Virus record (IMG/VR): IMGVR_UViG_3300042367_000196 | Coordinates: 1,998 to 65,997 of that record | Direction: 5' to 3' (one strand) | DNA: 64,000 nucleotides | From: a virus | Lineage: Duplodnaviria; Caudoviricetes | In this document: positions 9,981 through 57,720 of the stretch, piece by piece | Layout of the letters: each line of letters opens with the position of its first letter | How positions within the stretch are numbered: the first letter of the stretch is position 1 | Translations under genes and position numbers: made by a program | The notes under the pieces: generated by a model | The model's database searches: none | Seen by the model: only the letters and a program-made list of their open reading frames with translations | Told to the model about the DNA's origin: nothing

Positions 9981-10007
9981 AGTTATATTTTTATTTGTTA
10001 CATTAAT

Positions 10008-10037: not shown

Positions 10038-10041
10038 GACG

Positions 10042-10149: not shown

Positions 10150-10152
10150 AAT

Positions 10153-10317: not shown

Positions 10318-10318
10318 A

Positions 10319-10510
10319 TTAATCTCTATTTACAATTTCAAAATCTACATCAAAGAAGTCATCACTATCCAACACTAGTTCAGCGTTGTTATAATCGTAT
10401 CTTACAAACTCAAGTGCTTGTTCTTCACTTTGAGCTTCAACCGTTACTATTCTAATAAGTGTTTCGCACACTTCTACATTATATTCTTTCATATTAATAT
10501 TATTTAGCAA
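10319..10510 (-). CDS. DpnD/PcfM-like protein
   Basis: KEYNVEVCETLIRIVTVEAQSEEQALEFVRYDY...VLDSDDF pattern; true start probably at the internal MKEY. Confidence 0.7.
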   Translation of the reverse strand: MLNNINMKEYNVEVCETLIRIVTVEAQSEEQALEFVRYDYNNAELVLDSDDFFDVDFEIVNRD

Positions 10511-10787
10511 ACCAAGTTAATAATTCATTTACAGTTTCAAATACGTAACATTCGGCTCTCATTAAGTTAATTGAGTGAAGTACATAGTCTCTTTTAGTAG
10601 CGTGAGCATAAGCGTTCTCAAGCGATAACGAACCATTATTATTTAATGCAACAAAATTCTCGTCTCTCGTTTTAATAATTATAGCCTTTGTTTTTGCATC
10701 CTCCCACAATATACCTACGTGAGTATTGTTCCACACTTCTTTTATATCGGCCGTACACGGCATGTTTTCGGTTATAACTTTTCTCAT
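10500..10787 (-). CDS. Hypothetical protein
   Basis: ORF track; co-oriented. Confidence 0.65.
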   Translation of the reverse strand: MRKVITENMPCTADIKEVWNNTHVGILWEDAKTKAIIIKTRDENFVALNNNGSLSLENAYAHATKRDYVLHSINLMRAECYVFETVNELLTWFAK

Positions 10788-10788
10788 A

Positions 10789-10983
10789 TTAATTGTTTTT
10801 TAGTTGGTAAATTATTTCTCCTTGTAAATCTTCGATCACTCGTTGTATATGGTACGATTCACGTGCTTGTTTGTCGTCGCCGATACGTATAGCATCCGCT
10901 AACACATCTGTATGTTCTTCAAACAAATGGTCTAAAGCCACTTGAATTATGTTTGCATCTCGTTTAGTTATATTTAAGTACAT
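10789..10983 (-). CDS. Hypothetical protein
   Basis: ORF track; co-oriented. Confidence 0.65.
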   Translation of the reverse strand: MYLNITKRDANIIQVALDHLFEEHTDVLADAIRIGDDKQARESYHIQRVIEDLQGEIIYQLKNN

Positions 10984-10998
10984 AGCGTTTATATTTTA

Positions 10999-11262
10999 TT
11001 AGTTATTTTCGTAAGCAAAGTGAGCCCAAATTGCTTGATTAATTCGATCAAGTTCGGTAGTACCGTTTAAATAATTTTCAATTGAATTATAGAATTTAGT
11101 TAAACTTTTATCTATACTATTAAAGTTAGACTCAAAGTATTCTAAGTCGTCACCTTGTATGTAGTTTAACCCTACAATATCACCGTCTTCACGGACAACC
11201 AATACAAAACGGTCATCGCTTTCACACCAATAAATTTCTCTACTTTTAACTAGCTTATTCAT
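10999..11262 (-). CDS. Hypothetical protein
   Basis: ORF track; co-oriented. Confidence 0.65.
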   Translation of the reverse strand: MNKLVKSREIYWCESDDRFVLVVREDGDIVGLNYIQGDDLEYFESNFNSIDKSLTKFYNSIENYLNGTTELDRINQAIWAHFAYENN

Positions 11263-11263
11263 A

Positions 11264-11455
11264 TTACTTTGTTTTATAGGTTAATGATTTTAATTTATCT
11301 AATGTTTCTTTTTCAATAGAGCGCATATAACCAACCGTCATGATAGGTCGTCGATCGCTACGTTCCGCTTCAACTATATCGTTGCATATTAAGTTAATAT
11401 AATCTTGCAACCCTCGCTCAAGTAAGTGAGCTTCAAATCCGTTAAACTTTTTCAT
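11264..11455 (-). CDS. Hypothetical protein
   Basis: ORF track; co-oriented. Confidence 0.65.
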   Translation of the reverse strand: MKKFNGFEAHLLERGLQDYINLICNDIVEAERSDRRPIMTVGYMRSIEKETLDKLKSLTYKTK

Positions 11456-11458
11456 AAA

Positions 11459-11656
11459 TTACTTTTTTTGATTAGTTACTAATTTATACCAATACTCGCC
11501 GCCGTCTTCACTGTTACTCAAGTTAAACCACCCGTACACATCGAAAGATGATGCCGTAATTATATAGGCAATCCATTCAACACCGTTTTGTCTAATAGTT
11601 TCGTTAATAGCTTTGGTTTTGTCTTCTCTACTTAATTCTCTAAAATCTAAATTCAT
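11459..11656 (-). CDS. Hypothetical protein
   Basis: ORF track; downstream of promoter motif copy 5. Confidence 0.65.
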   Translation of the reverse strand: MNLDFRELSREDKTKAINETIRQNGVEWIAYIITASSFDVYGWFNLSNSEDGGEYWYKLVTNQKK

Positions 11657-11687
11657 AGTTATATTTGTTTTAATTTGTTACATTTTT

Positions 11688-11717
11688 ATTATCGATTAGG
11701 TATCGTTTTTAGTTTGT
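11688..11717 (-). promoter_or_regulatory. Phage-specific promoter-like motif, copy 5
   Basis: Same motif and spacing. Confidence 0.8.
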
Positions 11718-11808
11718 TAAAAGTATGCACTTTGTTTACACTAAAATAATTGATTGAATGTGTAGCCCTCTCCTCCTCAACGTCTAATTCTTAACTTTTA
11801 CGAAAAGA

Positions 11809-11854
11809 GTGACATTAGCTAGTTAAATATATATAGTAAGGGGCTATTGTCGCA
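11809..11854. repeat. Inverted-repeat site copy 2: GTGACATTAGC-N24-CTATTGTCGCA
   Basis: Both 11-nt arms are identical to copy 1; AT-rich spacer; intergenic. Confidence 0.85.
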
Positions 11855-12028
11855 CTATTTATACCTCAATTCTAGTCTTTTCATGATTTTCCCAAACTCC
11901 TCAAGATCCATTGGATTAAGTAATAACTTAGAACCCACTATTCGATGAGTGAATTGTATCTTCTTTGATTTAGTTAATTCTTGGTGGATAAAGGGACTAA
12001 AGTTTTTTTGGATTTTTAATACTATCAT
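11855..12028 (-). CDS. Small hypothetical protein (57 aa)
   Basis: Manual translation MIVLKIQKNFSPFIHQELTKSK...LELRYK; downstream of promoter motif copy 6. Confidence 0.55.
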   Translation of the reverse strand: MIVLKIQKNFSPFIHQELTKSKKIQFTHRIVGSKLLLNPMDLEEFGKIMKRLELRYK

Positions 12029-12057
12029 TTTACTTTGTTTTTATTTGTTACATTTAT

Positions 12058-12087
12058 ATTATCAAACTTTAATCGTTTTTGTTATGC
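12058..12087 (-). promoter_or_regulatory. Phage-specific promoter-like motif, copy 6
   Basis: Same motif and spacing. Confidence 0.8.
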
Positions 12088-12125
12088 TATACGCTACACA
12101 CCTAAAAATGCTATACACGAGTTTA

Positions 12126-12196
12126 GGGTGAGATCCCCCCGAAACTATGGCGTAGGGCGGAGTCCACTCTTTCGACCTTATTTCAGAGCCAGACCC
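12126..12196 (-). ncRNA. Candidate small structured RNA driven by promoter motif copy 7
   Basis: GC-rich 71-nt island bounded by GGGT...ACCC, starting 5 nt downstream of GATAAT; no ATG ORF. Confidence 0.5.
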
Positions 12197-12201
12197 AAAG
12201 T

Positions 12202-12231
12202 ATTATCAAAAAATACTCGTATTACCTATGT
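12202..12231 (-). promoter_or_regulatory. Phage-specific promoter-like motif, copy 7
   Basis: ACA-TAGG-TAATACGA-GTATTTTTT-GATAAT. Confidence 0.7.
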
Positions 12232-12268
12232 TTGCTATACACCCTTCGGGTGTGCTCGCTACGCTCGC

Positions 12269-12520
12269 TTATTCGTTAGGTTCCATTGGACCGATATAAA
12301 TCGTATCATTTTCAATAAACTCTAACTTTACAGTTGATCCCATGTTTGGTATCGATTCCTCATCATCATTCCACACAAATACTTGTTGTTTTTGAGTGTT
12401 TTCGAGACGTGTAATCTCATTTTCCATTGCAGTGATCGTAGTCATTCCGATTGTTAGAATAACTCCACCAGCGAAGCTTAAACAAGCTAATATTAGTGCA
12501 TCATTTCTTAGTTCTTTCAT
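12269..12520 (-). CDS. Hypothetical protein with N-terminal TM segment
   Basis: ORF track; hydrophobic stretch LILACLSFAGGVILTIGM. Confidence 0.65.
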   Translation of the reverse strand: MKELRNDALILACLSFAGGVILTIGMTTITAMENEITRLENTQKQQVFVWNDDEESIPNMGSTVKLEFIENDTIYIGPMEPNE

Positions 12521-12766
12521 TGTTTTTTTCGTTTTGAATTTGTTTATGTGTTTTACCTTGTAATCTTTGGTTCATGTAGTCTTCGAATGATGGACTACAC
12601 TGTCGGATTAGAGCCGATCTTCTTAGTTGTGAATTACTCCTCATATTCTTTTTCAATTGTTATTAGTATGTTAATGTATTCGTTTAATTCTACGTCGTCA
12701 ATAAGACTTTTGATTTTGTTTAATTTTTCTAGATTTGTCATTTGTATTTGTTTTAGTTACATTTAT

Positions 12767-12796
12767 ATTATCGATTGTTGATCGTTTTTCTTGTGT
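12767..12796 (-). promoter_or_regulatory. Phage-specific promoter-like motif, copy 8
   Basis: Same motif; upstream of a short ORF MTNLEKLNKIK... starting at 12741. Confidence 0.8.
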
Positions 12797-12809
12797 GTAT
12801 AGTAACGGC

Positions 12810-13163
12810 TTATTCGGCCGTCACTTCCACTTCAAGTTGTTCGATAGTCGCCAAGTGTCTAACATTAGCCGGCATATCGGTTGATTGTGACCAATACTCA
12901 CGTTTAATCCAACATGGCATGATACTTAGTTTAGGTAACATCACTTTAAGTACTTCATCATGATTGTAAGTTACTTTTTGATTTTTGTTGTTAACAAAGG
13001 TTATTGTTTGATTACGACCTAACCAAGATTTTCGGACTACAAAGTTGGCTCTTTGGATAGGTGGATAAATTAGAGCCTTTTGTTCATCACTTAAGTTGGC
13101 GATGGCCTCAACTAATAATTCTTTGTTTGATTTAACTACTTCAATTGTTTTTTGATTTTTCAT
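12810..13163 (-). CDS. Hypothetical protein
   Basis: ORF track; preceded by two tandem promoter motifs. Confidence 0.75.
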   Translation of the reverse strand: MKNQKTIEVVKSNKELLVEAIANLSDEQKALIYPPIQRANFVVRKSWLGRNQTITFVNNKNQKVTYNHDEVLKVMLPKLSIMPCWIKREYWSQSTDMPANVRHLATIEQLEVEVTAE

Positions 13164-13210
13164 AATTTTAATTATTTAAGTTATTTATTTATTTAATTTG
13201 TTACATTGTT

Positions 13211-13240
13211 ATTATCAAAGTCTTGTCGTTTTTACTTTGT
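13211..13240 (-). promoter_or_regulatory. Phage-specific promoter-like motif, copy 9
   Basis: Same motif and spacing. Confidence 0.8.
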
Positions 13241-13297
13241 AAGTTTTTTAAGTTATTTTATTTTTTATATTTATTATTTTTTATTTGTTACATTATT

Positions 13298-13327
13298 ATT
13301 ATCAAACTCCCGTCGTTTTTGGTATGC
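13298..13327 (-). promoter_or_regulatory. Phage-specific promoter-like motif, copy 10
   Basis: Same motif; tandem with copy 9. Confidence 0.8.
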
Positions 13328-13385
13328 TATACGCTTCGCTCGTGCTAGCGCACGGCTCCGCCTGTCAATTCCGCCTAGGCAGAGT

Positions 13386-13409
13386 AAAAGATCCCTGTCA
13401 CAGGATCTT
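13386..13409 (-). terminator. Candidate intrinsic terminator or hairpin
   Basis: AAGATCC...GGATCTT stem followed by a short T run on the minus strand, downstream of the 13428 stop. Confidence 0.45.
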
Positions 13410-13427
13410 ATTGAGATATGAATTCAG

Positions 13428-13619
13428 TTAATTAAATACTGAATTTCTTATTGATTCTAGTTCAGTCACAAAGAATCCATTATCTATCTCTTCTTCAGTA
13501 TATTCAATATCTTCTGAGAAACTAGAATAACAATATTCTTTCATATATTCTAATAATTCTTCTTTTGATAGATCTTTAAGATTATTAATATAAAGTTCTG
13601 TTTTAATTAAATTCATCAT
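13428..13619 (-). CDS. Acidic hypothetical protein
   Basis: ORF track; downstream of promoter motif copy 11. Confidence 0.65.
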   Translation of the reverse strand: MMNLIKTELYINNLKDLSKEELLEYMKEYCYSSFSEDIEYTEEEIDNGFFVTELESIRNSVFN

Positions 13620-13645
13620 AGTTATTTTATTTTAAGTTCATTAAT

Positions 13646-13675
13646 ATTATCAGTTATATTTCGTTTTTATTCTGT
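13646..13675 (-). promoter_or_regulatory. Phage-specific promoter-like motif, copy 11
   Basis: Same motif and spacing. Confidence 0.8.
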
Positions 13676-13815
13676 AACTTCTTTAATAATATTTTTAATT
13701 CTTCCTCTAAGTTTTCATAACCACTTACTTCATCTATTCTTTTATAGATCAATTCTTTTATTAACCAGATTTCTTTTAATTCTAATTTCATATTATATTT
13801 TTTAAGTTCATATAT

Positions 13816-13845
13816 ATTATCAATCTCTCATCGTTTTTATTATGC
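13816..13845 (-). promoter_or_regulatory. Phage-specific promoter-like motif, copy 12
   Basis: Same motif; upstream of a short ORF MKLELKEIWL... starting at 13791. Confidence 0.8.
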
Positions 13846-39981: not shown

Positions 39982-42900
39982 ATGGCAGAGTTTATACATA
40001 CCTTTACATCAGGTAAAATGAACAAAGATTTAGATGTTCGTCTAGTTCCTAATGGTGAATATAGAGATGCACTAAATCTTAATCTAGCTAACTCCGACGC
40101 TAGCGATGTAGGAACTTTACAAAACGTTCCTGGATCATTGCAGCTAAGAGGAAAAGTTGGTACAGGAAATACTTGGGCGGGTTCTTATATAGATGCAATG
40201 ACTAATCCTGTTTGTATTGGATCATATAGAGACAGTATAAACGAAAGAATATATTGGTTTATAGCTTCAGATCCAAATCCATCAACAGGCGTTAGAATAA
40301 GTGCTATTGCTGAGTACGATCAAACTACAAATGTAATAAGCCCTATATTAGTTGACACACACGACATATTAAACTTTACCCCTAATTATTTAATTACGGG
40401 TATTAATATTATAGATAGATTTTTGTTTTGGACAGACGATCAAACTGAGCCAAAAAAAATTAATATACAAAAATTTAAAACAGGTTCTGTAGACTTTGTA
40501 ACACATACAAAGGTACCATTATACATACCTGCTTCTGGTACAATGCCAGAAACCTATTCAACTAACTTAACAGGTCAACCAGATTTCATTGAGGCAGATG
40601 TTACGGTTATAAAGAAATCACCGTTAGCGGCGCCAACTTTAGATTTTTCTGCAAGTAAATACGGAGACAATGTTCCTGGTACTGGTATAACTCCTGTATC
40701 TACAACTTTGCCAACCCTAGCTACTATAAATTTTACTTATGTGCCTGATACTATAAACTCACCTACAGAATCGATTCCGCTAGACACTTACGGAGAGTAT
40801 CTTGTAAACGTAACAACTCCTGGGTTTTATGCAAATAGTAGTTTAAATAATCCATTATTACCTAATTATACCAATCCAACAACTATCTGGGACGGTCATA
40901 TCACATTTAATGTAAATACGGTGCCTCAATGGGGTGCAGGTGATCTTATAATTTTAAAAGCTGATTTTACAAATGAGTTTTTTGAAAGATATGATTATCA
41001 AATAAGTATAAAAGTTACCTCTGTTGTTAACACAACAATAACCGGGCAAATACAAGCCATTTCTAATGATATTAGTAGATTTATAAATTCTGCAAATCAA
41101 GTTCAAGTTTTTACTTGGGAATGCTTATTAGTAGAGGAAGCACCTATGTTTGAGTATGTATTTCCTAGATTTGCTTACAGATGGAAATATATAGACAATG
41201 AATACTCTTGTTATTCTCCATTTTCAGATGTTGCATTTGAGGGTGGGCAGTTTGAATATATCGCTTCAGATGGTTATAACATAGGTATGACAAACAGAAT
41301 TAGACGTTTGATTATAAATAATTTAAACTGGGGTAGTCAGGAAGTACAGGAAATAGACATTCTATATAAAGAAACTACATCCCCAGTTGTATACATTGTA
41401 GACACTCTAAAGAGATCAGATTTTGTGACGCCTCCTAATAGTTTTCAAGTTGAGACTGAATTAATTGGAGCTGTTGTTGAGTCAAACCAATTGCTAAGAC
41501 CTTGGGACAATGTTCCTCGTAAAGCAAAAGCACAAGAAATTGTAGGTAATAGAATAGTATATGGCAATTATTTACAAAACTATAATACACCAACAGTTGA
41601 TTTAACCTTAACATTAACGCCAAATAATCATCCAGCCGTAGCGGACCCATCAAAAATTAAACTACCGGTTCCGTCGGTTAAATCGATAAGAACTTATCAA
41701 GCGGGAGTTGTATTTATAGACGAATATGGCAGAGAAACACCTGTTTTTACAAGTAAATTTGGTAGTACAAAAGTTGATATAGCTAATTCAGATAAAGCAA
41801 ATAAGCTAACAATATCAACAACAGGAGCTCCTCCAGGTTGGGCAACTCATTATAAGTTTTTTATAAAAGAAAATTCAAACGAATATTATAATCTAGCGTT
41901 AGATAAATTTTATGATGCCGAGGACGGCAACGTATGGTTATCATTCCCTTCGTCGGAAAGAAATAAAGTAGATGAAGAAACGTATTTAATATTAAAAAAA
42001 CAGCACGATACAAATGTAGCTGTCACTACATTTAATCGTTATAAGATATTATCTATTGAAAACGAAGTTCCTGAATTTATATCTACATTTGATAAAGTCG
42101 TTTCAAGCTCTGTTGTTACGCTTGATCAGCCAATAGAAATAGGATATATAACAATAACTTTTACTGGACCAGACCCTACTTCTAATCCATTCTTTGGGCC
42201 TAAACTTAATGGTAACAAAATTGTATTAAGTGTTGGTGGATCTAGAACAGACGAATATCCTGTTGCTGTTGCTAAAGTATTAAGTACTTCTGGTGGCAAT
42301 GCCGCTTATGAGGTAACTTTAACTAGATTCCTTGGCTCTGATGTTGGATTTTTACAATCCGTACCTGTTGGTGCGTCTATTGATGTAACAATATATGAAG
42401 AAGATACTGTAAACAAACCTGAATTTGAAGGTAGATTTTTTGTAAAAATAAATAGGGATTTTGCTTTTGATACGAATATAATATCGTCATTTGCGGCAAT
42501 GGCTCCAAGATATGGTATAACTACGGAAATAAGAGTAAACCCAGCTAGGTGGCCTTGGAATGGTGCTGACCCCGTTTTTGTATTTAGTGATAATGGTTCA
42601 GACTTTAGGGACTCTGGTTGTAGCAGTCAAAAATTTAGTAGTCGATTAATAGGCTGGTCTGGTGGCGTTGGAAATCGTGTATTACAATCTGACGGTACAG
42701 TAGCAGCTAAATTTCCTGCATGGCAACCACCAACTAGAGGCAGTAATAAATTTGGTGTAATGGCACTTAGAGTGGAAGGTTTTGGTAGTTATATAAATCC
42801 ATTTTTTGGCAACATAAGATCTAACGGAAATAGACCGTCTGGATCGGGGGCTTCTCCTAATGGTAAATTATCGCAAGGTGCTCTTATTCGCTTCCAATGT

Positions 42901-45030
42901 AATCAAGCTACCGGGCCTTATGCGGGAGTTAAATCACAAGTATACACCGTTACTTATGCTTTGGCTAGTGCCAGCGCAAGAGGGGAAAGAAGAAAAGTAG
43001 GTTTTGGAGGATGTTTTGATGGTAATGATATTCGTAATTATAGATATGCAATATACGTTGAATTAAATAAACCTATATCAGAGGAATGGATGCCTTTGGT
43101 TAATGATTGGACAACTTTAGAAAATAGACAAATATCTATTGAAGTAGTGGAGCAAGTTACGGATGGTGAAAATAAACTTTTAACTTCAACAAATCCTGCT
43201 GTTTTTGAAACTGAGCCAAAAGAAAAAGTAGATTTAGATCTTTACTATGAAGCATCGGACTCTATTCCTATAACTAATTACAATGTACCTAATCAGACAT
43301 TAACTTGGTTTAACTGTTATTCATACGGGCAAGGCGTTGAATCAAATCGCATTAGAGATGACTTTAATGCTCCGACTATAGACAAGGGTTCAAAAGTTTC
43401 TACTGTTCTTGATGAGCCTTATGCGGCAGAAAGAAGAGGTAGTGGATTTATATTTTCACAAATATATAATTCAACTTCAGGTATAAATAGATTAAATCAG
43501 TTTATACAAGCTGAACCAATTACAAAAGACCTTAACCCAATATATGGTACAATACAAAAACTTCACTCTAGAAATACAGACTTACTAACTTTGTGTGAAG
43601 ATAAATGTTTGAGAGTATTAGCAAATAAAGATGCTTTATTCAATGCTGATGGTAATACAAATGTAACATCTAATCAAGCTGTTTTAGGGCAAGCAGTACC
43701 ATACGATGGAGAATTTGGGATTTCTAAAAACCCAGAATCATTTGCGTCTTATGGATATAGAGTATATTTTACTGACAAAAACAGGGGAGCGGTTATAAGA
43801 TTATCAATGGACGGAATAACAAATATTGCAGACACTGGTATGGCTTCATTTTTTGCGGATAACCTAAGAACATCGACAGTTGCAATAGGTAGTTACGACG
43901 ATGATGAAGACCTATATAACTTAACATTAAATCGATTAGATTCTAATTGGCAAAAAATACTTAGCAATGATGCTAACTATCAATTAGATCCTGATTGCGA
44001 AAATGGACCAGCATCAGTTGTAACAGAAACAACAATATCTTTTAAAGAATCTGCTGAAGGCTGGACAAGCCGTAAAGACTTTATACAAGAGTCAGGCATT
44101 ACTTTAAATAATATATATTATACCTTTAAAAGAGGTTTAGTTTGGGAGCACGGCGCTAACCCGTTGTATAATAATTTTTACGGTATACAATATGACAGCT
44201 CCTTCAATGTATTAATTAATGAAGAACCTCAAGTTGTAAAAGGCTTTAGCACATTAAATTATACCGGAAGTAAATCTAGATATTTCCAATATCAAGTAGG
44301 CCCTAAATGGTATTCAATAGATGAGATAAATGCTAATCAAACTATACCTACTGCTATTACTCAAAAAACAGCTGGTTGGTATACAAGTTTTATTAGAACA
44401 GATCTTGAAGCGGGAGAAGTTAAAGAATTCCAAAAGAAAGAAGGTAAGTACTTTAACTACATAAAAGGAACCTTAATAGGTTGTGATCCTAAAGGTATTG
44501 GTGTTGGTAGTCCAATAGAAATCATTGCTGAACCACAAGATTACATTTTATTGGTTTCAATAGATCCAAAATGTAGTATGACTAATGACCCAAATACTGC
44601 TCAAGGAGGATTAACATTGTATTCTGGATGGTATGATTGTAATGCTCAATATAATAATCAGTTTTACTATAATAATGAAACAACACCATTCCCAACAGCG
44701 GATGATGCTGCTTGTGGTGCAGGAACATTTTTTGCAAATATGGAGGGTAACTATTTACTTGGAGGATGTGCGTTTGTTCAGCAGTTTAATTATTTTACAA
44801 ATGTTGGAATAGTGGTTGGGGCGCAGCTTTACGATCCGTTTACATTAAATCCAATAAATAATAGCGGATATTTCTTATATACTGGAAATCTTAATTACGG
44901 CCCTGATATACCAGCATACCTTGATCCTACTAATACCGAATATCAAATACCAGATGATTGGTCTATGATTATAATTACAAACGGTATAATAACTCAAATA
45001 ATACAGTATAATACATTATCGTGTCCTTAA
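39982..45030 (+). CDS. Large tail (nozzle/stabilisation-type) protein
   Basis: MNKDLDVRLVPNGEYRDALN N-terminus and FGISKNPESFA...YFTDKNRGAVIRLS beta-propeller-like C-terminal region; 1682 aa. Confidence 0.7.
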   Translation: MAEFIHTFTSGKMNKDLDVRLVPNGEYRDALNLNLANSDASDVGTLQNVPGSLQLRGKVGTGNTWAGSYIDAMTNPVCIGSYRDSINERIYWFIASDPNPSTGVRISAIAEYDQTTNVISPILVDTHDILNFTPNYLITGINIIDRFLFWTDDQTEPKKINIQKFKTGSVDFVTHTKVPLYIPASGTMPETYSTNLTGQPDFIEADVTVIKKSPLAAPTLDFSASKYGDNVPGTGITPVSTTLPTLATINFTYVPDTINSPTESIPLDTYGEYLVNVTTPGFYANSSLNNPLLPNYTNPTTIWDGHITFNVNTVPQWGAGDLIILKADFTNEFFERYDYQISIKVTSVVNTTITGQIQAISNDISRFINSANQVQVFTWECLLVEEAPMFEYVFPRFAYRWKYIDNEYSCYSPFSDVAFEGGQFEYIASDGYNIGMTNRIRRLIINNLNWGSQEVQEIDILYKETTSPVVYIVDTLKRSDFVTPPNSFQVETELIGAVVESNQLLRPWDNVPRKAKAQEIVGNRIVYGNYLQNYNTPTVDLTLTLTPNNHPAVADPSKIKLPVPSVKSIRTYQAGVVFIDEYGRETPVFTSKFGSTKVDIANSDKANKLTISTTGAPPGWATHYKFFIKENSNEYYNLALDKFYDAEDGNVWLSFPSSERNKVDEETYLILKKQHDTNVAVTTFNRYKILSIENEVPEFISTFDKVVSSSVVTLDQPIEIGYITITFTGPDPTSNPFFGPKLNGNKIVLSVGGSRTDEYPVAVAKVLSTSGGNAAYEVTLTRFLGSDVGFLQSVPVGASIDVTIYEEDTVNKPEFEGRFFVKINRDFAFDTNIISSFAAMAPRYGITTEIRVNPARWPWNGADPVFVFSDNGSDFRDSGCSSQKFSSRLIGWSGGVGNRVLQSDGTVAAKFPAWQPPTRGSNKFGVMALRVEGFGSYINPFFGNIRSNGNRPSGSGASPNGKLSQGALIRFQCNQATGPYAGVKSQVYTVTYALASASARGERRKVGFGGCFDGNDIRNYRYAIYVELNKPISEEWMPLVNDWTTLENRQISIEVVEQVTDGENKLLTSTNPAVFETEPKEKVDLDLYYEASDSIPITNYNVPNQTLTWFNCYSYGQGVESNRIRDDFNAPTIDKGSKVSTVLDEPYAAERRGSGFIFSQIYNSTSGINRLNQFIQAEPITKDLNPIYGTIQKLHSRNTDLLTLCEDKCLRVLANKDALFNADGNTNVTSNQAVLGQAVPYDGEFGISKNPESFASYGYRVYFTDKNRGAVIRLSMDGITNIADTGMASFFADNLRTSTVAIGSYDDDEDLYNLTLNRLDSNWQKILSNDANYQLDPDCENGPASVVTETTISFKESAEGWTSRKDFIQESGITLNNIYYTFKRGLVWEHGANPLYNNFYGIQYDSSFNVLINEEPQVVKGFSTLNYTGSKSRYFQYQVGPKWYSIDEINANQTIPTAITQKTAGWYTSFIRTDLEAGEVKEFQKKEGKYFNYIKGTLIGCDPKGIGVGSPIEIIAEPQDYILLVSIDPKCSMTNDPNTAQGGLTLYSGWYDCNAQYNNQFYYNNETTPFPTADDAACGAGTFFANMEGNYLLGGCAFVQQFNYFTNVGIVVGAQLYDPFTLNPINNSGYFLYTGNLNYGPDIPAYLDPTNTEYQIPDDWSMIIITNGIITQIIQYNTLSCP

Positions 45031-49386: not shown

Positions 49387-52300
49387 ATGACTCCATTTTT
49401 AACGAAACAAGAATTAGAAAAAAAACGCAAAGCAAAAGAATCTCTTTTACCAAAAATTAAAAAAGAGGCTGGAGAAACTGAAAAAGCGTTTTTGGACCGT
49501 TTGTTAAAAAACGCTCCAATTGTTAAAACAATTGAAGTCCCAAGACAAAGAAAGTTTACTGGCGTACCTGAAGTTAGTTTAGGTGGAGTAGTAGAAAAGA
49601 AAATAAAAAAACAAGAAGAGAAAAAGATATTCCCTAATAAAAAGGTTGTTGAAGAAGAACCTGTAGAGAGAACTATAACCGAAAAAGTGATGCAACCAGG
49701 AGAAGACATAATTCCTGGTTTCAAACATTTTATTACCGATATAATTGATTCTAACGAAGTATACCGAATGCAAGATGATATTTTTGGCTTGGAATACGGT
49801 GAATCAATTTCAGAAAAAGAAAACTTAGATACATACGAGGAGTTACTTAGTAATGAAGATATAAAAGGTAAATTAAGGAATCGCGCTTTAGCTAACTACA
49901 AAGCACTACATCCAAACCAAAAAATAGATGACTACTTTGTTGATGTAATGGTTAACGATGTAATCGCAAATAAAATTCAAGAAGAACAGGAGACCGAGGC
50001 TAAATGGAAAAAAGAGTATGCAGACAAAAGCATATTGGCTGGAAAATATGATAATGTATTAAATTTAGGTATAGACACCCATATAAAGCAAGTAAGTCCT
50101 GAGGAACAATTTATAATAAAAGGTCTTGCCGAGGCTCGCAAATTGCAAAAAATTGTAGATAATCCTAATGTTAACCAAGATGAGTACGCTAAGGCTTTTT
50201 CTAAATTAGGAACCTTGGATAAAAATGTAAAAAACGCATTAAAGGAATATGATAGTAAATATTCTTTTCATTTTGACAATGTAACCGGCCGTCGTCTTAC
50301 CAAAGAGGAAGTAGATAACAGAATCAAAGCCGGAGAGGGTAATACTATGACTGACCAAGAAAAGCAGATTGCTAAGATGAGGACTGCTCATAAAAATTCG
50401 GATTTAGAATCATTAGAAAGAGGTTACTTTTCGCATTTATATAAATACAATAATTACATAAGTAAACTAAATAAAACTTATGATTTAAACCCAAGTGATA
50501 TTGTACTACGTAATTCATTAGCAACTAAAGGTTATAAGTTTAAACCAGGTACGAATATTTTTACCGGCGTTAAATTAAAAGACCTTATACCTTTTGTAGG
50601 TAGCAGTAAAGGATATGATAAGTCAATAGAAAAAGCTTTTGTTGATGCTGCTCCTCCTGGGAAAGGTACCCAAGTCAGACAGCTTATGGTTCCGTATTTA
50701 AAGGATCTTATTAAAGAAAAGACGCCTTTAATGTTAGAAAGGGAAGCTTATAAGCTATCATACTTAATGAATATCGATCCTAAAAGCATGAGCCAAGGTT
50801 ATGGGGAAAGATTTTTAGAAAGTGTTTCCGATGCAACCATCGGAGTAAAGGCAACACGTGATCTTTTCAAAACAAGTTCAAGAACAAAATTAGACCAAAT
50901 AAAAGAAGTGTTTAATGATGCAGGTGTTAAACCTACTAAGGAGCAAGAGGATAATTTTAGGAGAGATGATGTAATGAAAATCACAGAAGGGGTTGGAACA
51001 TTTTTACCGGAGTTGCCTAAGTTTGCTATTGCAAATGCTATTTCCGGTGGAATATTAGGATCAACTGCTTTTGGGGCTAGAATGGCTGCTTTAGGTAGAT
51101 CAACAAAACTAATGGATAAAATAGTATATAATGGTTTCAATGCTTTAAAAGAAGAGGCTATATTTAAAACTGTTACTGCTGGCGAATCCCAAACTGGTGG
51201 AGGAGCTGGATTTTATTTAGGGGGAAAACTCGTTGGTAAATTAGGTAAATTTTCACCAATAAATTTAACTGGTAGATCAGCCGCATTTAGACCTTTTGTA
51301 CAAAAAGTTATTCAACCTGGTGTAGGTATGTCTGTTGGTTCAGAAGGCGCAGCTATTGTCGAATCAATATACAAAGACGTTAAAGATAATAAATCTTTTA
51401 AAATGTCTATGGAAGACCTTTATGGGAATAGCGATGAGACTACTTCTCGTATGATGGTTAATCTTGCTATAGGTGGATTAATAGGTGCTAAAGATTTAAA
51501 GCTAGCTACTGATTTTAAATCTATAGCCGCAAAAAGGGACATGGTAGATAATCTTAATGTTGAAATAGAGAACCTTGAAGCAGAGAATAATCCAAAGAAT
51601 AAAAAAACAATAGAACAAAAAATAAATCTAATGAACTCGCTTAATTTAGAATTAAATTTTGCGGATCAAGCGTTTAATGATTTAGATGTATTAAGCTTAA
51701 AACAAGAAATTAAAAAAGCTAAAGCAGAAATTGAGTCTGGCAAACTAGACGAAAGACAAAAGTTAGAAGCTGAAAATTTTATAGCAGAAGGCGGAGCAAA
51801 GATTGACGCTGTAAGAAGAAACCTTATAAGAGACTTTAACGCAAAAGCTAAAGCAGGAGCATTCGGCAAAGATACAAAATTAGTTGTTGTTGATGGTGAA
51901 GAGGCTATGGGTAACGGTAATAAAGCTGAGTTTAAGCCTAACGGAGAGATTTGGGTAAACATAGAGAAATTTAGAAAAGGAGTATTAGGCCATGAAGTAG
52001 GACACGCTATGGTAAAAGCTGCTTTTGAAAAAAATAAAGATTTAGCGCAAAAAATGAAAGATGCTATACAACCTGTTGTAGAGAAAGCATTACAAAGTAG
52101 AAGACAATTAGGAGGTAGTTTAGAAAAAACAATAGACAAATTTTATTCTGAAGCAGAATTAACAGGGTCAAAAAGACCGGAGGAATATATCATGAATGTG
52201 GTAGAATTACTTCAAGAGCCAAGTCTTAGAGACGCAATGCTTAATACTGATATACTGCCCACGTTTAGAAGAGCTCTAGGCGAAATTGGAAATAAAATAG

Positions 52301-55300
52301 GGTTTGATTTTACTTCAAATAAAGCGCTGGACGTAGGCGAAAAAAATGCAGACAGAGCAAGTGATTTATTAGAATTTCTTTATGAATTAGGGACTAGTGC
52401 AGAGGGTAGAAGTGCAAGTGCTTTAAAAAATAAATTTAAGAAATTTGATAATATTTTAATAGACGGTAAAAAGCTTATTAATGAAAAAACCGGCGAAGAA
52501 ATAATAACAGAAGAAAAAGCTATTGGTGAAATTGAATCAATGGCATCAAAAGAAATAAGCGAAAACGAGAAAAAAGATATATTTTCTAAAGCTACTAGAG
52601 CTTATGAAGATGCCATGAAATCAGGAAGCTCGCCAGAAATCGCGGGGTTAATGGTTGGCATGGAGATGGAGCCTCTTATTAAAAAACAAGTTGAAAGGTA
52701 CCTTATTTCAAAAGGTATCACTATGTCACGCGATCAAATTCAAGATATTGTTGATTCATTGACCACTGATTCAGGTACAGGTACCTTTGGTGTGCCGAGT
52801 TTAACACAAGGATGGACAAAAGGTCAAGAAATTATAAAATATATAAATACAGAAAACCCTACTAGAGAACAGATAAACAACAAAGCAAAGGAATTAGGTA
52901 TACAGGATAGAACGTCTGCTGGAAGTGAGTCAAGCACTATTGATAAGTATATTAAGATGGCTAAAGGAGAAACCGAACAGGCTCAATTAACTTCTTACAT
53001 ATTTGGTAACTTGCCAAAACGTATATTACAAACTTTACAAAAATCTGAGTTTTCCGATTCGTTTAATACGTTTTCGATGGAGGATGTTAAGAACATCGAT
53101 AAATTAGAAGAAAGTGCAGGTATAAGTGGGGCTAGCGGCAGCAATGAGCAAGGTTATATTGATATATCATCTCCAGAGAAATACACTAGAGACTCTCAAA
53201 AAAATGCAGAAACAATATTAGAACTGCCTGCTCCTTTGGTAGAAAAAATTAATACTGATGCTAACAAGTTTTTAAATTCTCAAAAATTAGAGAACTTAGA
53301 TGCTAAATCTATTGGTACTGTTCCATTAAAAGACGGAGGTAAAGCTAAGGTAGCTATGCTTGAAAGTGATAAAGCAAGAATAACTTATCCTGACGGAAGA
53401 GTTGAGACTATTAAAGCTAGATCACCAAAATTAGTAGAGCAATACTTAGGAGCCGCGGATAAATCATTTGAAAAAGATTTTAATTTTAAAGAAGGTTTAT
53501 CTGAGGATTTTAAAAATTCGTTATTCAATGATTTGTCTAAACATGCTGGTAATATTATTGACAACAAAAGAGCCACCCCTGAATATGCAAAATTCATAGA
53601 TAATGCTTTCCCTTTGTTTAAAACATTTTTAAGCCAATATTCCGTAAACAAAAGATTTGCTGATTTTAAAGAACCTTATATAGATCCAGCGACCGGAAAA
53701 CAAGCAAGAGAAAAAACTGCTGCTGGAAATCCTATTTTTACAAAAAAGAATATAACTTTAGCTGAATGGAGAAAATACTTTTTAGGTGATGGTACACAAC
53801 GTATCGACGGTAAAAGAAGATCTATTATAGAAGCATTAGCTGTTGAATTAGGGTTTGATGCAACAATGAACGTGCTTGGCAAAGAAGCTATGCGTGAACA
53901 ATTAGAGCTAAGACAAGGTGAGTTAAGTGTAAAATTAGTAGAAAATTATGTAGCTGTTATTGGTAAGCAAATAGACCGCGGTATTGAAACCATGGCTTCT
54001 AAAGATCTTAGAGAAAGAGTGCAAGAAAAGTTTGGTCTTAGTAAAGAAGTAGCTGATTTTAGAATAGTTAGATCTTTGTTTGACGAAAACAACAATATAA
54101 GATCAAATGAAGAAATATGGGCGTCACCTATTGGCAGGTTTGTATGGGAATTACAAGAATATAATGCTGAAAATAGACTTGCTAATGATATTGAAGCCCG
54201 TATAGCTGCTGATAAGGAAAATGCAAATTTTAAACAAAAGTTAAAAGCAGACGGGATTAAATTTGATTATGAAAATATAAAAGACTTTGTAACAATAAAC
54301 AAAAAGTCAGAAAAAGAATTAAAAGAGTACGAAGAAGAATTTGTTAAACCTTTTGCCGCATTAGTGCCTAGAGAAGTATCAGAATTTACTACAGCCGCAA
54401 ATACTAAACTTGGCAATAATGAATTGTCATTATATGGAGGTAATTCTATTTTAGCACCGTTTCTTTCATATACGAGTAGACAAGATATAAAAGGAGAGTT
54501 GCTTAATCGTACAAGATTTGAAGAAGTAACTAAAGATGCAAAAACAAATATAGAACTATCACCTGAATTAAAAAATGAATGGGAAGAGCTTATAAAGCAA
54601 GCTAGAGCTAACAATAAAAAAGGTAAGGGAATAACAATAATAACAAAATCTAAAGACCATCAAAAGAAAATAGATGTAATATCAAAATCTAATTTAGACC
54701 CAAAAGAAAAAATAAATCTAATAGATAATCTGCCTTCAAGAGAAGAGGCTATTATAGATACAGCTATTAAAAACAAGCTTTTTGAATTAAAGTTAAAGAC
54801 TATTAAAGAGATGGCTCAGTCTTTAGACCAGTCAAAAGCCGGAGATCCTGCAAGAGAAAGGCTAGCTAAGCATGTTGCCGCTATGGTTTTAAATAATGAC
54901 AAGTTTGGCCCTAGAAAATATTCAAGTGAAATTTACTATGATCTTAGTATGCCTGCTGATGCCAAAACCAAAAACGAACATTTAACAAGCAAAGCGCGTT
55001 TTGGAGCAGATCTTGTTGGTGCTATAAAAGAAAACAAGCTTACCGACGAGAAAATAACAGAGCTGCTAACATATTTCGAAAGCGCTCTTGGTAATAAAGA
55101 GGGTCAAATATTTGCCGATATACATCTTGGAAAAACAGCTGACAACGCAAAATTTTATAAATTAGCTATTGCTCAAATGGCTAATATAACTGTTGAAAAA
55201 TCAAAATATAAAGAAGCTCTTGAAAATGTATATAATTGGACTACAAAAAAAACGGCATGGCAAGAGCTTATTGAAAGTGATTTAGCTAAAGAATTTTCTA

Positions 55301-57720
55301 TTAAAGACGAGACTTCCGAGCCAATGGCTTCAAAAGACCTTTCTAAAGATCTTAGTGAAATGATTGAGCGTAAAAAAGGCCTGCCAGCGGGAGAGGAAAT
55401 ATCGGCTGCTAAAGCTGCAATACTTGGCAGGAAGAAAGGAAACTTTGAATTCTTTGTGCCTGCTAATGCTGAGGATTTTGCTGGTATGCTTTATAAATTT
55501 TATGGCAAAGGAGAACAAGGTAACAAAGATATGGAGCTAATGAAAAAAGCTTTATTAGATCCATACGAAAGAGGCGAAAATGCGCTTAGTTCATACAGAC
55601 AAAAACTTACTACCGATTTAAAAGCAATGGATGCTCAATTAAATGAGTTAGGTGGTAAGGTAACTAATGAGTCTAAAGAAGCTTTAAAGAAATCTGGTTT
55701 TGACGCTGATCAAGCAACAAGAGTATATATATGGAATAAGAAGGGTGAAAAAATACCTGACATAACAGATACTGAAGTTAAAGAACTTTCAGATATTGTT
55801 GCAAATGATGCTCGTTTAAGAAGTTATGCGGATGGCGTTATGTCTCTTGTTGATTTTCCAGCCCCTACAGATTCATGGTATGGAAGTAATCTAAAATACG
55901 ATTTATATAAATACAGTACAGAAGGTGTGAGAAAAGATTTCTTAGCTGAATGGAAAGAGAATATGGATGCAATGTTTACAAAAGAGAACTACATTCGTAT
56001 GGAAGCTGCTTATGGAAAAGGATTTGTAGAAAACTTTAAGTCATTAACAAAAAGAATGGAAACAGGTAAGTTTAGACCTGAAAACATTAATAGAGCGGCT
56101 CAAAAAGGATTAGATTGGATCAACGGATCTGTTGGTGTTATCATGTGGATGAATATGCGTTCCGCACTACTTCAAACTACATCGGCGATAAACTATATAA
56201 ACTGGGGAGACAATAATATATTAGCCGCTGGTAAAACAATAGCTAAGCCTGTAGAGTTTGCTAAGACTTTTAAAGAACTAATAAATTCTGATTTCTTAAA
56301 GCAACGTAGAAACGGGTTAGAGATAAATATCGAAGATGCCGAGATTGCAAGAGCGATTGAAAAGGGAGGTAATGCACCTCAACGTATATTTGGCCAATTG
56401 ATAAAGGCCGGTTTTAAACCTACTCAAATGGCAGATAGTTTCTCTATTGCAATTGGTGGTACACCTTTTTACATGAATAGAACTAAAACTTACCAAAAAG
56501 AAGTGATTATTGATAGCAATGGTAATGAAGTTAGAAAGTATACCGATGCTGAAGCAAAGAAAAAAGCATTTGATGATTTTAGAGCATTGTCAGAAGAACA
56601 CCAACAGTCAAGTAGACAAGATCGTGTTTCTAATGTGCAACTTGGGGTTTTAGGTAGATTAATATTTGCATTCAACAATACTCAGATGCAGATGGCACGT
56701 TTACAAAAGAAAGCCACTCTTGATATAATAAATAAAAGAGGAGATATGAAAACAAACGTATCTAAGCTTGTATATTATGGAGTGGTACAAAGTGCGATCT
56801 TTACCGCTTTACAACAAGGTGCTTTTGGAATGATGTTTGGCAAAGATGAAGATGAACTAAAAGAAGGTGAAGCTGAGCACATTGCTAAAAAGAAAGAAGA
56901 GAAAGTTGTTGGTATGTTAAATAGTATGGTAGATGGTACTTTAACCGGTATTGGATTAGCTGGTAAACTAGCTGTAACTGCTAAAAATACTTTATTGAAA
57001 TACCAAGATGAAAGCGCTAAAGGATATAAAGCAAACTACGGTAAAGTTGTTAATGAAGCTTTAAGTATATCTCCACCTTTGTCAAGTAAAACTAAAAAAG
57101 CCGCTAGTGCTTTTGAGGATATAAAAAGATTAAGCACCAAGAAAGGACAAAAAGAAGTTGAAGAGTCTGGTGCATTCAATAATCCTTATAACATGCCTAG
57201 AGCAAAATTAGTGGCCGCTGCAACAAATATACCAGTAGACAGGGTGTTAACAAAGCTTGATAACTTAATTACAGCTATAGATGATGAAAATATTCAAGGT
57301 TGGCAAAGAGCTGCGTTATCTTTAGGATGGGATAAATATAGTTTAGGGATGTATGAAGACGAATATTTGGATCCTACTGAACAAGCCGCCGCTGATGCAA
57401 AAGAAAAAGCTGAAAAATCTGCAGAAGCAAAAGCTACTAGAGATGCTAAAAAAGCGCTAGAGCAAGCAGAATATGACGCTTTACCACAAGTAACAAAAGA
57501 TAGCCTTGACTTAGTAAAAATAAAAGCAAAAGAAAAAAAATCTAGGGATAAATACATAGAGGAGCAAGTTAGAAAATCAAAACTAACACCTGAACAGTTG
57601 GAGTACGAGAAGTATTTAGCGAAAGAGAAAAGAAAAAAGTCTAAAGAAAAGGCAAGGATTACAAAAATACGAAACCAAAAAATAAAAGATTCTATAAATT
57701 ACGCTAATACAAGAAGGTAA
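49387..57720 (+). CDS. Giant (2777 aa) putative ejected, polyvalent-type protein with zincin HExxH domain
   Basis: VLGHEVGHA at 51991-52005; three MASK[ED] linkers; hydrophobic Gly-rich segments; last gene of the ejection cluster. Confidence 0.75.
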   Translation: MTPFLTKQELEKKRKAKESLLPKIKKEAGETEKAFLDRLLKNAPIVKTIEVPRQRKFTGVPEVSLGGVVEKKIKKQEEKKIFPNKKVVEEEPVERTITEKVMQPGEDIIPGFKHFITDIIDSNEVYRMQDDIFGLEYGESISEKENLDTYEELLSNEDIKGKLRNRALANYKALHPNQKIDDYFVDVMVNDVIANKIQEEQETEAKWKKEYADKSILAGKYDNVLNLGIDTHIKQVSPEEQFIIKGLAEARKLQKIVDNPNVNQDEYAKAFSKLGTLDKNVKNALKEYDSKYSFHFDNVTGRRLTKEEVDNRIKAGEGNTMTDQEKQIAKMRTAHKNSDLESLERGYFSHLYKYNNYISKLNKTYDLNPSDIVLRNSLATKGYKFKPGTNIFTGVKLKDLIPFVGSSKGYDKSIEKAFVDAAPPGKGTQVRQLMVPYLKDLIKEKTPLMLEREAYKLSYLMNIDPKSMSQGYGERFLESVSDATIGVKATRDLFKTSSRTKLDQIKEVFNDAGVKPTKEQEDNFRRDDVMKITEGVGTFLPELPKFAIANAISGGILGSTAFGARMAALGRSTKLMDKIVYNGFNALKEEAIFKTVTAGESQTGGGAGFYLGGKLVGKLGKFSPINLTGRSAAFRPFVQKVIQPGVGMSVGSEGAAIVESIYKDVKDNKSFKMSMEDLYGNSDETTSRMMVNLAIGGLIGAKDLKLATDFKSIAAKRDMVDNLNVEIENLEAENNPKNKKTIEQKINLMNSLNLELNFADQAFNDLDVLSLKQEIKKAKAEIESGKLDERQKLEAENFIAEGGAKIDAVRRNLIRDFNAKAKAGAFGKDTKLVVVDGEEAMGNGNKAEFKPNGEIWVNIEKFRKGVLGHEVGHAMVKAAFEKNKDLAQKMKDAIQPVVEKALQSRRQLGGSLEKTIDKFYSEAELTGSKRPEEYIMNVVELLQEPSLRDAMLNTDILPTFRRALGEIGNKIGFDFTSNKALDVGEKNADRASDLLEFLYELGTSAEGRSASALKNKFKKFDNILIDGKKLINEKTGEEIITEEKAIGEIESMASKEISENEKKDIFSKATRAYEDAMKSGSSPEIAGLMVGMEMEPLIKKQVERYLISKGITMSRDQIQDIVDSLTTDSGTGTFGVPSLTQGWTKGQEIIKYINTENPTREQINNKAKELGIQDRTSAGSESSTIDKYIKMAKGETEQAQLTSYIFGNLPKRILQTLQKSEFSDSFNTFSMEDVKNIDKLEESAGISGASGSNEQGYIDISSPEKYTRDSQKNAETILELPAPLVEKINTDANKFLNSQKLENLDAKSIGTVPLKDGGKAKVAMLESDKARITYPDGRVETIKARSPKLVEQYLGAADKSFEKDFNFKEGLSEDFKNSLFNDLSKHAGNIIDNKRATPEYAKFIDNAFPLFKTFLSQYSVNKRFADFKEPYIDPATGKQAREKTAAGNPIFTKKNITLAEWRKYFLGDGTQRIDGKRRSIIEALAVELGFDATMNVLGKEAMREQLELRQGELSVKLVENYVAVIGKQIDRGIETMASKDLRERVQEKFGLSKEVADFRIVRSLFDENNNIRSNEEIWASPIGRFVWELQEYNAENRLANDIEARIAADKENANFKQKLKADGIKFDYENIKDFVTINKKSEKELKEYEEEFVKPFAALVPREVSEFTTAANTKLGNNELSLYGGNSILAPFLSYTSRQDIKGELLNRTRFEEVTKDAKTNIELSPELKNEWEELIKQARANNKKGKGITIITKSKDHQKKIDVISKSNLDPKEKINLIDNLPSREEAIIDTAIKNKLFELKLKTIKEMAQSLDQSKAGDPARERLAKHVAAMVLNNDKFGPRKYSSEIYYDLSMPADAKTKNEHLTSKARFGADLVGAIKENKLTDEKITELLTYFESALGNKEGQIFADIHLGKTADNAKFYKLAIAQMANITVEKSKYKEALENVYNWTTKKTAWQELIESDLAKEFSIKDETSEPMASKDLSKDLSEMIERKKGLPAGEEISAAKAAILGRKKGNFEFFVPANAEDFAGMLYKFYGKGEQGNKDMELMKKALLDPYERGENALSSYRQKLTTDLKAMDAQLNELGGKVTNESKEALKKSGFDADQATRVYIWNKKGEKIPDITDTEVKELSDIVANDARLRSYADGVMSLVDFPAPTDSWYGSNLKYDLYKYSTEGVRKDFLAEWKENMDAMFTKENYIRMEAAYGKGFVENFKSLTKRMETGKFRPENINRAAQKGLDWINGSVGVIMWMNMRSALLQTTSAINYINWGDNNILAAGKTIAKPVEFAKTFKELINSDFLKQRRNGLEINIEDAEIARAIEKGGNAPQRIFGQLIKAGFKPTQMADSFSIAIGGTPFYMNRTKTYQKEVIIDSNGNEVRKYTDAEAKKKAFDDFRALSEEHQQSSRQDRVSNVQLGVLGRLIFAFNNTQMQMARLQKKATLDIINKRGDMKTNVSKLVYYGVVQSAIFTALQQGAFGMMFGKDEDELKEGEAEHIAKKKEEKVVGMLNSMVDGTLTGIGLAGKLAVTAKNTLLKYQDESAKGYKANYGKVVNEALSISPPLSSKTKKAASAFEDIKRLSTKKGQKEVEESGAFNNPYNMPRAKLVAAATNIPVDRVLTKLDNLITAIDDENIQGWQRAALSLGWDKYSLGMYEDEYLDPTEQAAADAKEKAEKSAEAKATRDAKKALEQAEYDALPQVTKDSLDLVKIKAKEKKSRDKYIEEQVRKSKLTPEQLEYEKYLAKEKRKKSKEKARITKIRNQKIKDSINYANTRR

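Follow-up and report, generated by a model that had tools for sequence, protein, structure and literature searches.

What does the second module of a giant phage protein do, and could it take part in starting early-gene transcription in its phage? The question is raised by a complete viral record of 65,997 bp with direct terminal repeats (IMGVR_UViG_3300042367_000196), bases 1998-65997 of which form the stretch analyzed here, hereafter the window (64,000 nucleotides [nt]). The gene concerned is an open reading frame (ORF) at positions 49387..57720 of the window, on the plus strand, whose product is a modular protein of 2777 amino acids (aa) and a presumed virion cargo or ejection protein. To our knowledge, phages start early transcription in two ways, namely by having the host holoenzyme read host-like promoters or by injecting a complete RNA polymerase, as in N4, crass-like, and phiKZ-like phages. 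A first-pass annotation of the window had proposed a different route for this phage, in which a sigma-like factor lodged in module 2 (52540..53991, plus strand; aa 1052-1535) is injected and directs the host polymerase to early promoters with a nonhost sequence. The reading that we prefer, to which we give roughly even chances, is that module 2 is a conserved module of a modular cargo protein and has no proven link to RNA polymerase.

Module 2 and the giant protein around it

The giant gene follows genes for a terminase (phrog_6681), a portal (phrog_6547), a capsid-type structural protein (phrog_13704), and a muzzle-like tail protein (1682 aa; 39982..45030, plus strand), in this order. The muzzle-like protein matches crAss_MUZ_C (PF25729) with an E value of 1.9e-6 and 28.6 bits against a cutoff of 27, and phrog_14478 with an E value of 4.5e-137. 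Located after a crass-type muzzle gene in a complete, podophage-like genome, the giant ORF probably encodes a virion cargo protein, and the ejection role that the first-pass annotation assumed for it agrees with this gene order. The crass-like virion RNA polymerases (phi14:2 gp66; crAss001 gp47/49/50) offer a parallel: they too are giant proteins encoded after tail or muzzle genes in podophages of Bacteroidota, and presumably packed and ejected. In the case of crAss001, the genes after the muzzle gene are reported to encode cargo and polymerase-associated proteins that were found in virions by mass spectrometry (PMC10172136). The giant protein itself belongs to no Pfam or PHROG family, and a tblastn search against 50,697 phage records returned no match to it; it is thus carried by no cultured relative in that set.

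Relatives were found in a word-indexed search with aa 1052-1535 as the query (E <= 0.001), and at least 120 of the 126 relatives described show 30-95% identity, are mostly 2500-3300 aa long, and come from marine or other aquatic metagenomes. The family-wide counts given below refer to an alignment of 95 proteins longer than 2500 aa, taken from the first 104 listed; the best-conserved part of the giant protein in this alignment is aa 2000-2650. The protein comprises four modules, whose borders carry a recurrent [M/F/L]-A-S-K-x-[IL] motif (hereafter the MASK motif) that is also seen in relatives (P0002-P0104) down to about 35% identity. The junction that opens module 2 (52540..52551, plus strand; aa 1052) is the least conserved of the three across the 95 relatives. 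At the second junction (53992..54003, plus strand; aa 1536), the M, A, S, and K are present in 70, 79, 90, and 65 of the 95 sequences, respectively, and the preceding D and R in 94 and 95. At the third (55324..55335, plus strand; aa 1980), S is kept in 93/95 and K in 78/95 sequences, and relatives have extra modules just 5' of the junction. Some relatives have extra cassettes, which lie between additional copies of the junction motif and are inserted right before such motifs; they include a Zeta_toxin/AAA_33 kinase cassette in the distant relative P0107, an insert containing FDFDDTL, and, in P0008, one of 157 aa. The junction motif could be a protease site or an adaptor. We also considered the motif as a trace of fused genes, a reading left without support because a search for stand-alone versions of module 2 gave only three shorter, fragment-like matches.

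Several parallels are suggested by the polyvalent proteins, which are described as entering the cell along with the DNA and as being processed by zincin-like peptidases that they themselves contain, and which have been proposed to jump-start transcription (Iyer et al. 2017, PMC5512222). Like them, the giant protein is a very large, multimodule protein of the virion module, has variable enzymatic cassettes in its relatives, and possesses a zincin-like xExxH motif. This motif, detected by a motif scan in module 1 (51991..52005, plus strand; aa 869-873), is the sole HExxH of the protein; at its first position, the 95 sequences have H (43), Q (51), or E (1), whereas E870 and H873 never vary and E933 is conserved in at least 97%. 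Judged from these residues, the xExxH...E motif of module 1 may represent a degenerate or atypical zincin. Unlike in the polyvalent proteins, the first His of the motif is thus replaced by Gln in more than half of the family, and no Pfam polyvalent domain is found at its cutoff (LPD26 has an E value of 0.033 and 14.7 bits against 27). A scan for hydrophobic segments returned only three weak 19-mers (Kyte-Doolittle values of 1.2-1.3) in the giant protein, leaving a membrane role unsupported. Module 2 belongs to the conserved core of the giant protein, which, judged from gene position and architecture, most likely acts as a polyvalent cargo protein and would be ejected early, together with the DNA.

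In the AlphaFold2 model of module 2 (mean predicted local distance difference test [pLDDT] score, 75), a helical domain (module residues 8-174; 120-175 aa across the family) is joined by a flexible linker (175-214) to an alpha/beta domain (215-450). The helical N-domain (52540..53064, plus strand; aa 1052-1226) has a pLDDT of mostly 76-89 per 10-residue block, with one block at 64, and its invariant positions are K1062, G1087, G1091, and an A-x-L-T-S-Y-x-x-G-x-L block. Within it lies a 52-aa insertion (52822..52977, plus strand; aa 1146-1197), recognizable from phmmer matches that are split into 1-94 and 147-481 in P0055-P0092. The insertion is missing from 7 of the 23 rows of alignment A1, which consists of representatives at 80% identity; these were chosen among the 100 proteins, out of 123, in which module 2 is covered. 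It displays an N-P-S/T-x-x-x-I-x-x-K-A-x-E-L-G pattern reminiscent of helix-extended-helix DNA-binding motifs, and single homologues give weak Pfam matches to small DNA-binding domains (SAM_3, 0.002; HTH_24, 0.037; Cro, 0.22). The linker (53065..53181, plus strand) is of low confidence, with a pLDDT below 50 at module residues 175-214, is predicted to be disordered, and carries a G-F/Y-V-D-x-S-S-P-E motif with an invariant D-x-S-x-P at 53161-53175 (D1259, S1261, and P1263 in aa 1259-1263); this might act as a short linear motif or mark a cleavage site. The basic alpha/beta C-domain (53182..53991, plus strand; aa 1266-1535) has an isoelectric point of 8.9 and many invariant K, R, and aromatic columns. 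It is the most widely conserved part of module 2, and the distant relatives P0105-P0120 match only module residues of about 280-482.

The helical domain compared with sigma-70 region 2

The phage encodes a canonical sigma factor of 249 aa (2742..3491, minus strand), which Pfam recognizes as Sigma70_r2 with an E value of 1.4e-6; in a six-frame scan of the 65,997-bp genome, this gene is the only Sigma70_r2 match at E <= 10. A profile of this sigma (alignment A2, 32 sequences) provided the positive control for the comparisons below: it matched 79 distinct PDB sequences, of which the 60 among the matches listed are all sigma factors (best, 1.2e-18), and hhalign related the phage sigma to host extracytoplasmic function (ECF) sigmas with a probability of 94%. 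The phage sigma is of high abundance and strongly conserved: as a protein query, it has at least 8000 matches at E <= 1e-5, and the 120 among the matches listed are all at least 70% identical to it. It matches only 487 cluster representatives out of 1.84 billion, which points to a compact, phage-specific sigma clade.

The peptides that were read as sigma-like do lie between the first two MASK motifs of the giant protein, at aa 1094-1217, with the individual strings starting at aa 1094, 1116, 1135, and 1201 (nt 52666, 52732, 52789, and 52987). Direct searches gave no sign of a sigma domain there. Pfam detected no sigma family in the whole giant protein or in its four pieces (E <= 1 to 10), and none of the 23 homologues of module 2 matched one at E <= 10; likewise, the A1 profile had no match among PDB sequences at E <= 10. 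In a BLASTP comparison of module 2 with the phage sigma, the best match (E value, 0.10) was in a different register. A sigma hidden Markov model (HMM) run against 123 giant proteins reached at best 4.7 bits versus 4.4 for reversed sequences, and the reciprocal search with an HMM of the domain against 270 sigma sequences reached 6.2 bits versus 8.2 for reversed ones. Profiles of host sigmas were no closer: hhalign scores were 12.3 for the ECF set (25 sequences) and 13.4 for RpoD (2 sequences), versus 12.2 and 12.8 with the query reversed. These sets came from 30 loci, after three wrongly picked ORFs had been dropped and the two primary sigmas set aside. With the insertion kept as match columns, the hhalign probability was 0.2-0.4%, and A1 against A2 gave 0.27%, with the alignment falling elsewhere in the protein. 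Foldseek searches of PDB and BFVD with the model of module 2 likewise gave nothing at E <= 0.001, and none of the 50 rows listed for either database was a sigma.

Against the reading of module 2 as a cargo module with no proven polymerase link stand a number of results, which we describe next. Because many relatives are devoid of the 52-aa insertion, hhalign was repeated with an insertion-less homologue as the master, and it then aligned the domain with the phage sigma clade at a score of 25.7-33.4, a probability of 14-52%, and a P value of 1.4e-4 to 2e-3. The aligned stretch corresponds to region 2 of the phage sigma clade (columns 34-108) and to about aa 1091-1218 of the giant protein (52657..53040, plus strand), coordinates that are good to a few residues because they were mapped from homologue P0055 by alignment. 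At the lower end of this range, a 100-sequence domain profile is colinear with sigma columns 36-108 (score, 25.7; probability, 14%; reversed query, 14.2); at the upper end, a realigned 35-sequence sigma set gave a score of 33.4 and a probability of 52%. When the 95-sequence alignment was scanned in 122-residue windows under three masters, the windows covering the domain ranked first each time, with scores of 31.9 among 86, 32.0 among 83, and 31.0 among 87 windows (probability, 44-50%; P of about 2e-4), and the next unrelated windows scored 19.4, 19.4, and 18.2. As nulls, a reversed sigma template reached at most 17.4 over 86 windows and 17 decoy templates from the same protein at most 16.1. 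The signal also holds with the 21 clade members that are less than 40% identical to the phage sigma (score, 31.7). Further, in the ESM Atlas, Sigma70_r2 clusters are the sole Pfam-named family retrieved by both the module and the domain queries, each at rank 11, with scores of 0.88 and 0.89 and 78/256 and 93/256 features shared, all below the thresholds of the tool.

A further result of this group comes from a complex prediction between module residues 1-175 and residues 150-420 of RpoC from Flavobacterium johnsoniae, the host beta-prime subunit being the partner proposed in the first-pass annotation. The prediction passed, with values of 0.63, 0.63, and 0.49 (median, 0.63) versus 0.00 for the best of three controls, by a mark that is reached by 58/80 solved complexes and 2/110 mismatched pairs; the runs have at least 88% of their contacts in common, and the pLDDT of the partner is at least 79. 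The residues predicted to touch beta-prime are aa 1081-1092 and 1112-1130 (52627..52776, plus strand), and those contacted on beta-prime are 291-319 and 337-342. A beta-prime from one member of the Flavobacteriaceae and that of Escherichia coli align free of gaps with an offset of +17 over 111 residues, whereby contacts 292, 312, and 319 correspond to R275, E295, and A302 of E. coli, if the numbering of F. johnsoniae is taken to be the same. Substitutions of these three coiled-coil residues are reported to impair holoenzyme formation (PMC8321222). In the model, the domain is placed on the coiled-coil residues that are used by sigma region 2.2, a prediction that supports binding rather than demonstrating it and that is in line with the engagement of host core polymerase envisaged in the first-pass annotation. 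Against docking, conservation is lower at the 20 residues predicted to make contact than at the 94 remaining noninsertion positions of the domain (0.443 versus 0.639), despite an invariant target surface. In addition, the helix placed on beta-prime (aa 1112-1130) is not the one that hhalign treats as the main equivalent of region 2.2 (about aa 1135-1145). The pass may itself be due to a resemblance to sigma-core complexes that have been solved. The ESM Atlas lead and the docking are not independent because they come from related models; for this reason, and in view of the poor conservation of the interface, we discount the docking pass, which is otherwise the strongest single item.

Also to be counted against our preferred reading is that the packaging of the giant protein in virions and its ejection are presumed from the position of its gene. 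As for the hhalign alignment, it comprises the blocks first seen by eye in their order (2.1-, 2.2-, and 2.3/2.4-like), in 58 aligned columns with four gaps. The by-eye comparison with regions 2.1-2.4 was thus reproduced and stands out against internal controls, whereas the Pfam, PDB-profile, HMM, Foldseek, and host-profile tests all went against it. The signal is fragile, being lost when the insertion is kept and falling to 19.3 with nine sequences. Each block alone is at noise level; it is their order and spacing that give a family-wise P of roughly 0.02-0.1 once windows and variants are allowed for. Once the insertion is left out, the 2.2-like and 2.3-like blocks are spaced much as they are in the phage sigma. 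Set beside sigma-70 region 2 (PF04542), the domain is similar in its helical stretch, where three blocks follow one another as 2.1, 2.2, and 2.3/2.4, and in its predicted docking on the coiled coil. It is dissimilar in that the giant-protein family has not maintained DLIQEG, the 2.2 signature of the phage sigma, in the split of the 2.2-like helix by about 10 residues, in the insertion that this phage has before the 2.3-like block, in the lack of regions 3 and 4, and in being embedded in a structural-module protein. The residues conserved in sigma 2.2 and 2.3 are not retained, as D1116 and Q1119 match the phage sigma in this phage only and are variable among the relatives. With region 4 as the target, all windows stay at the null level: the best scores are 19.2-19.4 for sigma columns 175-218 and 16.6-17.3 for the ECF region 4. 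The helical domain is, then, not a demonstrable member of the sigma-70 family; what it has is a weak resemblance, in three blocks, to the sigma that the phage itself encodes.

The early motif and the competing explanations

Ten copies of a promoter-like motif of about 45 nt are found at 7114..13837 on the minus strand, 5' of leftward small genes. On the coding strand, the motif reads AAAAACGA, 7-8 nt, TTGATAATAT, and then AATGTAAC. The pattern TTACATTNNTATTATCRN8TCGTWTT has 10 copies, where shuffles predict 0.04, all in one orientation and each just upstream of a minus-strand ATG, and in most copies the motif ends about 10-30 nt before that ATG. The motif fills nearly every gap between the small leftward genes. 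Of the five records of relatives searched, three contain it, among them G001 (complete, 66.6 kb) with 11 copies and G004, whose module is 48% identical, with 4-5; the two records without it are 57% and 83% complete. The early motif does not fit the Bacteroidota consensus TTTG/TAnnTTTG, and TTTG-N17-21-TAnnTTTG itself has 4 matches where 3.5 are expected; the earlier description of a real early-gene motif unlike that of Bacteroidota is therefore upheld. A tRNA-like T-arm string, GGTTCGAATCC, occurs near 7170 (about 7150-7200, minus strand), upstream of the gene at 6658-7098; ARAGORN calls no tRNA in the window, and we rejected a tRNA at this string. In our preferred scheme, the host holoenzyme would read the early promoters, and the 249-aa phage sigma, encoded among replication genes, would take over later. 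In phi14:2, one report (10.1101/2020.03.07.982082) describes transcripts of the virion polymerase without a common motif and middle promoters with -35/-10-like blocks that are read by the host enzyme. The early transcripts of that phage, with no common upstream motif, thus differ from the ten early genes that share one here.

The resemblance and the docking could nevertheless be functional. One possibility, which we consider unlikely, is that the helical domain is a much-diverged sigma region 2, closest to that of the phage's own sigma clade, that comes in along with the DNA, docks onto the clamp helices of beta-prime, and starts transcription at the ten early promoters in place of a virion RNA polymerase, perhaps with help on the DNA from the basic C-domain. 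The T4 late factor is a minimal, sigma-2-only factor, and a domain of this kind would resemble it. In favor of this explanation are the colinear match to columns 34-108 (probability, 44-52%), which tops the 83-87 windows under three masters while the nulls stay at or below 19.4, the sigma-like spacing without the insertion, and the predicted docking on the face that binds sigma 2.2, to which the Sigma70_r2 clusters of the ESM Atlas add a lead that is not independent of the complex fold. The absence of a conserved DxDxD from the family also counts in its favor, as does the persistence of the early motif at a giant-protein identity of just 48%. These have to be set against the negative outcome of every sequence-to-profile and fold search, the silence of the host ECF and RpoD profiles, the dependence of a gappy alignment on removal of the insertion and on the number of sequences, the split 2.2-like helix and its mismatch with the docked one, the poorly conserved contacts on an invariant target, and the want of a region 4 match; moreover, a link between domain and motif is absent from this analysis. 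The injected sigma-like factor of the first-pass annotation is, on balance, partly supported, with the missing region 4 and the family-wide variation of the sigma 2.2 matches telling against it. If the docking is considered by itself, a sigma-2-like engagement of the host polymerase in any role is improbable, and a reading of the early promoters by the helical domain is less likely still. Equally speculative is an evolutionary version, in which a lineage of 66-kb phages of marine Flavobacteriia has, in place of the virion RNA polymerase of its crass-like cousins, a cargo-embedded region 2 copy of its own sigma that docks on the clamp helices of the host core enzyme and fires the ten nearly identical early promoters before any phage protein is made.

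Docking without promoter reading has a comparably slim prospect in our view. In that event, the domain would sit on the clamp helices either to compete with host sigmas, as in shut-off, or to hold the polymerase at the entry channel, so that transcription draws the genome in. This would suit a domain that is predicted to dock on the sigma-binding face yet lacks a region 4 and the conserved residues of sigma 2.2-2.3, and polyvalent proteins have been proposed to act on host systems at entry (PMC5512222). It takes its cue, though, from the docking prediction by itself, in which the interface is poorly conserved and the pass may stem from likeness to solved complexes. Far less probable than any of these is a very divergent virion RNA polymerase hidden in the giant protein and reading the early motifs. 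The position of the gene is that of crassvirus polymerase genes, and phage polymerases often have promoters that, like the early motif, are long and conserved. However, DFDxD/DxDxD is described as the motif of crassvirus virion polymerases (10.1101/2020.03.07.982082), and D.D.D is absent from the whole 2777-aa protein, in agreement with the first-pass annotation, and none is conserved in the 95 relatives. We rejected as a catalytic motif the DFDID of a few relatives, since it aligns with an unconserved column in which the D residues are present in 39/95, 18/95, and 77/95 sequences. Unlike the two-barrel crassvirus enzyme, the two modules that were folded, module 2 and the C-terminal module (aa 1985-2660; pLDDT, 75 and 60.7), yield helical or alpha/beta models without a pair of barrels, and for the C-terminal module neither Foldseek against PDB nor a profile against PDB sequences found a match. 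N4 is described as starting early transcription by means of a giant ejected protein. That protein has a complete T7-like polymerase, whereas the giant protein here shows no polymerase motif or fold.

A limited search of titles and abstracts found no report of a virion-packed sigma-like protein, and by term count neither the word sigma nor the Greek letter occurs in the text of the paper on polyvalent proteins (PMC5512222). An injected domain for promoter specificity or polymerase docking, if real, would constitute a third way of starting early transcription. It would also explain how marine Flavobacteriia phages of an abundant group, which have a crass-type tail and no polymerase motif, come to use a promoter outside the host consensus. 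The idea is unusual and directly testable, and hence merits follow-up even at low odds. Even if module 2 is not sigma-like, our preferred reading leaves a large, unannotated family of modular cargo proteins with a simple junction motif that is useful for the study of assembly and processing.

Neighboring genes and host group

Beyond the structural block, the leftward arm contains genes for a primase/helicase, an exonuclease, an Erf-like protein, a phosphoesterase, and the sigma, and the right end those for a ribonucleotide reductase and MazG. A comparison by the muzzle protein gave 87 records, each with less than 60% identity, and placed Cellulophaga phi38:1 and phi40:1 and the Flavobacterium 'elemo' phages nearest among cultured phages. 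The muzzle-like protein of phi38:1 (Pervagoviridae) is 32.6% identical over 55% of the query, and its genes gp97-gp101 follow the same order, with gp101, annotated as structural, as the last large gene of the block. Unlike the giant protein, gp101 has 1691 aa; it belongs to no Pfam family, and the best BLASTP match between the two (E value, 0.043) falls in a Gly-rich stretch and reflects no real similarity.

A 117,301-bp contig of a Flavobacteriaceae metagenome-assembled genome (L020, L021) carries the giant-protein gene twice, 65,167 bp apart. It looks like a concatemer of a related 65-kb phage that was binned with the Flavobacteriaceae genome, and this gives a hint of the host group. Further copies of the giant gene are in bins of unrelated taxa and are probably misbinned. 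GC-rich hairpins are present at 37272-37365 and 38218-38293, downstream of capsid-region genes, and are followed by TATAAAT-containing stretches directly 5' of the next ATG; these combinations may represent a late promoter type distinct from the early motif. Finally, the late block encodes a GroEL-type chaperonin (23574-25166, plus strand; phrog_5725, E value of 1.8e-138), and the annotation of Cellulophaga phi38:1 includes a GroES-type cochaperonin.

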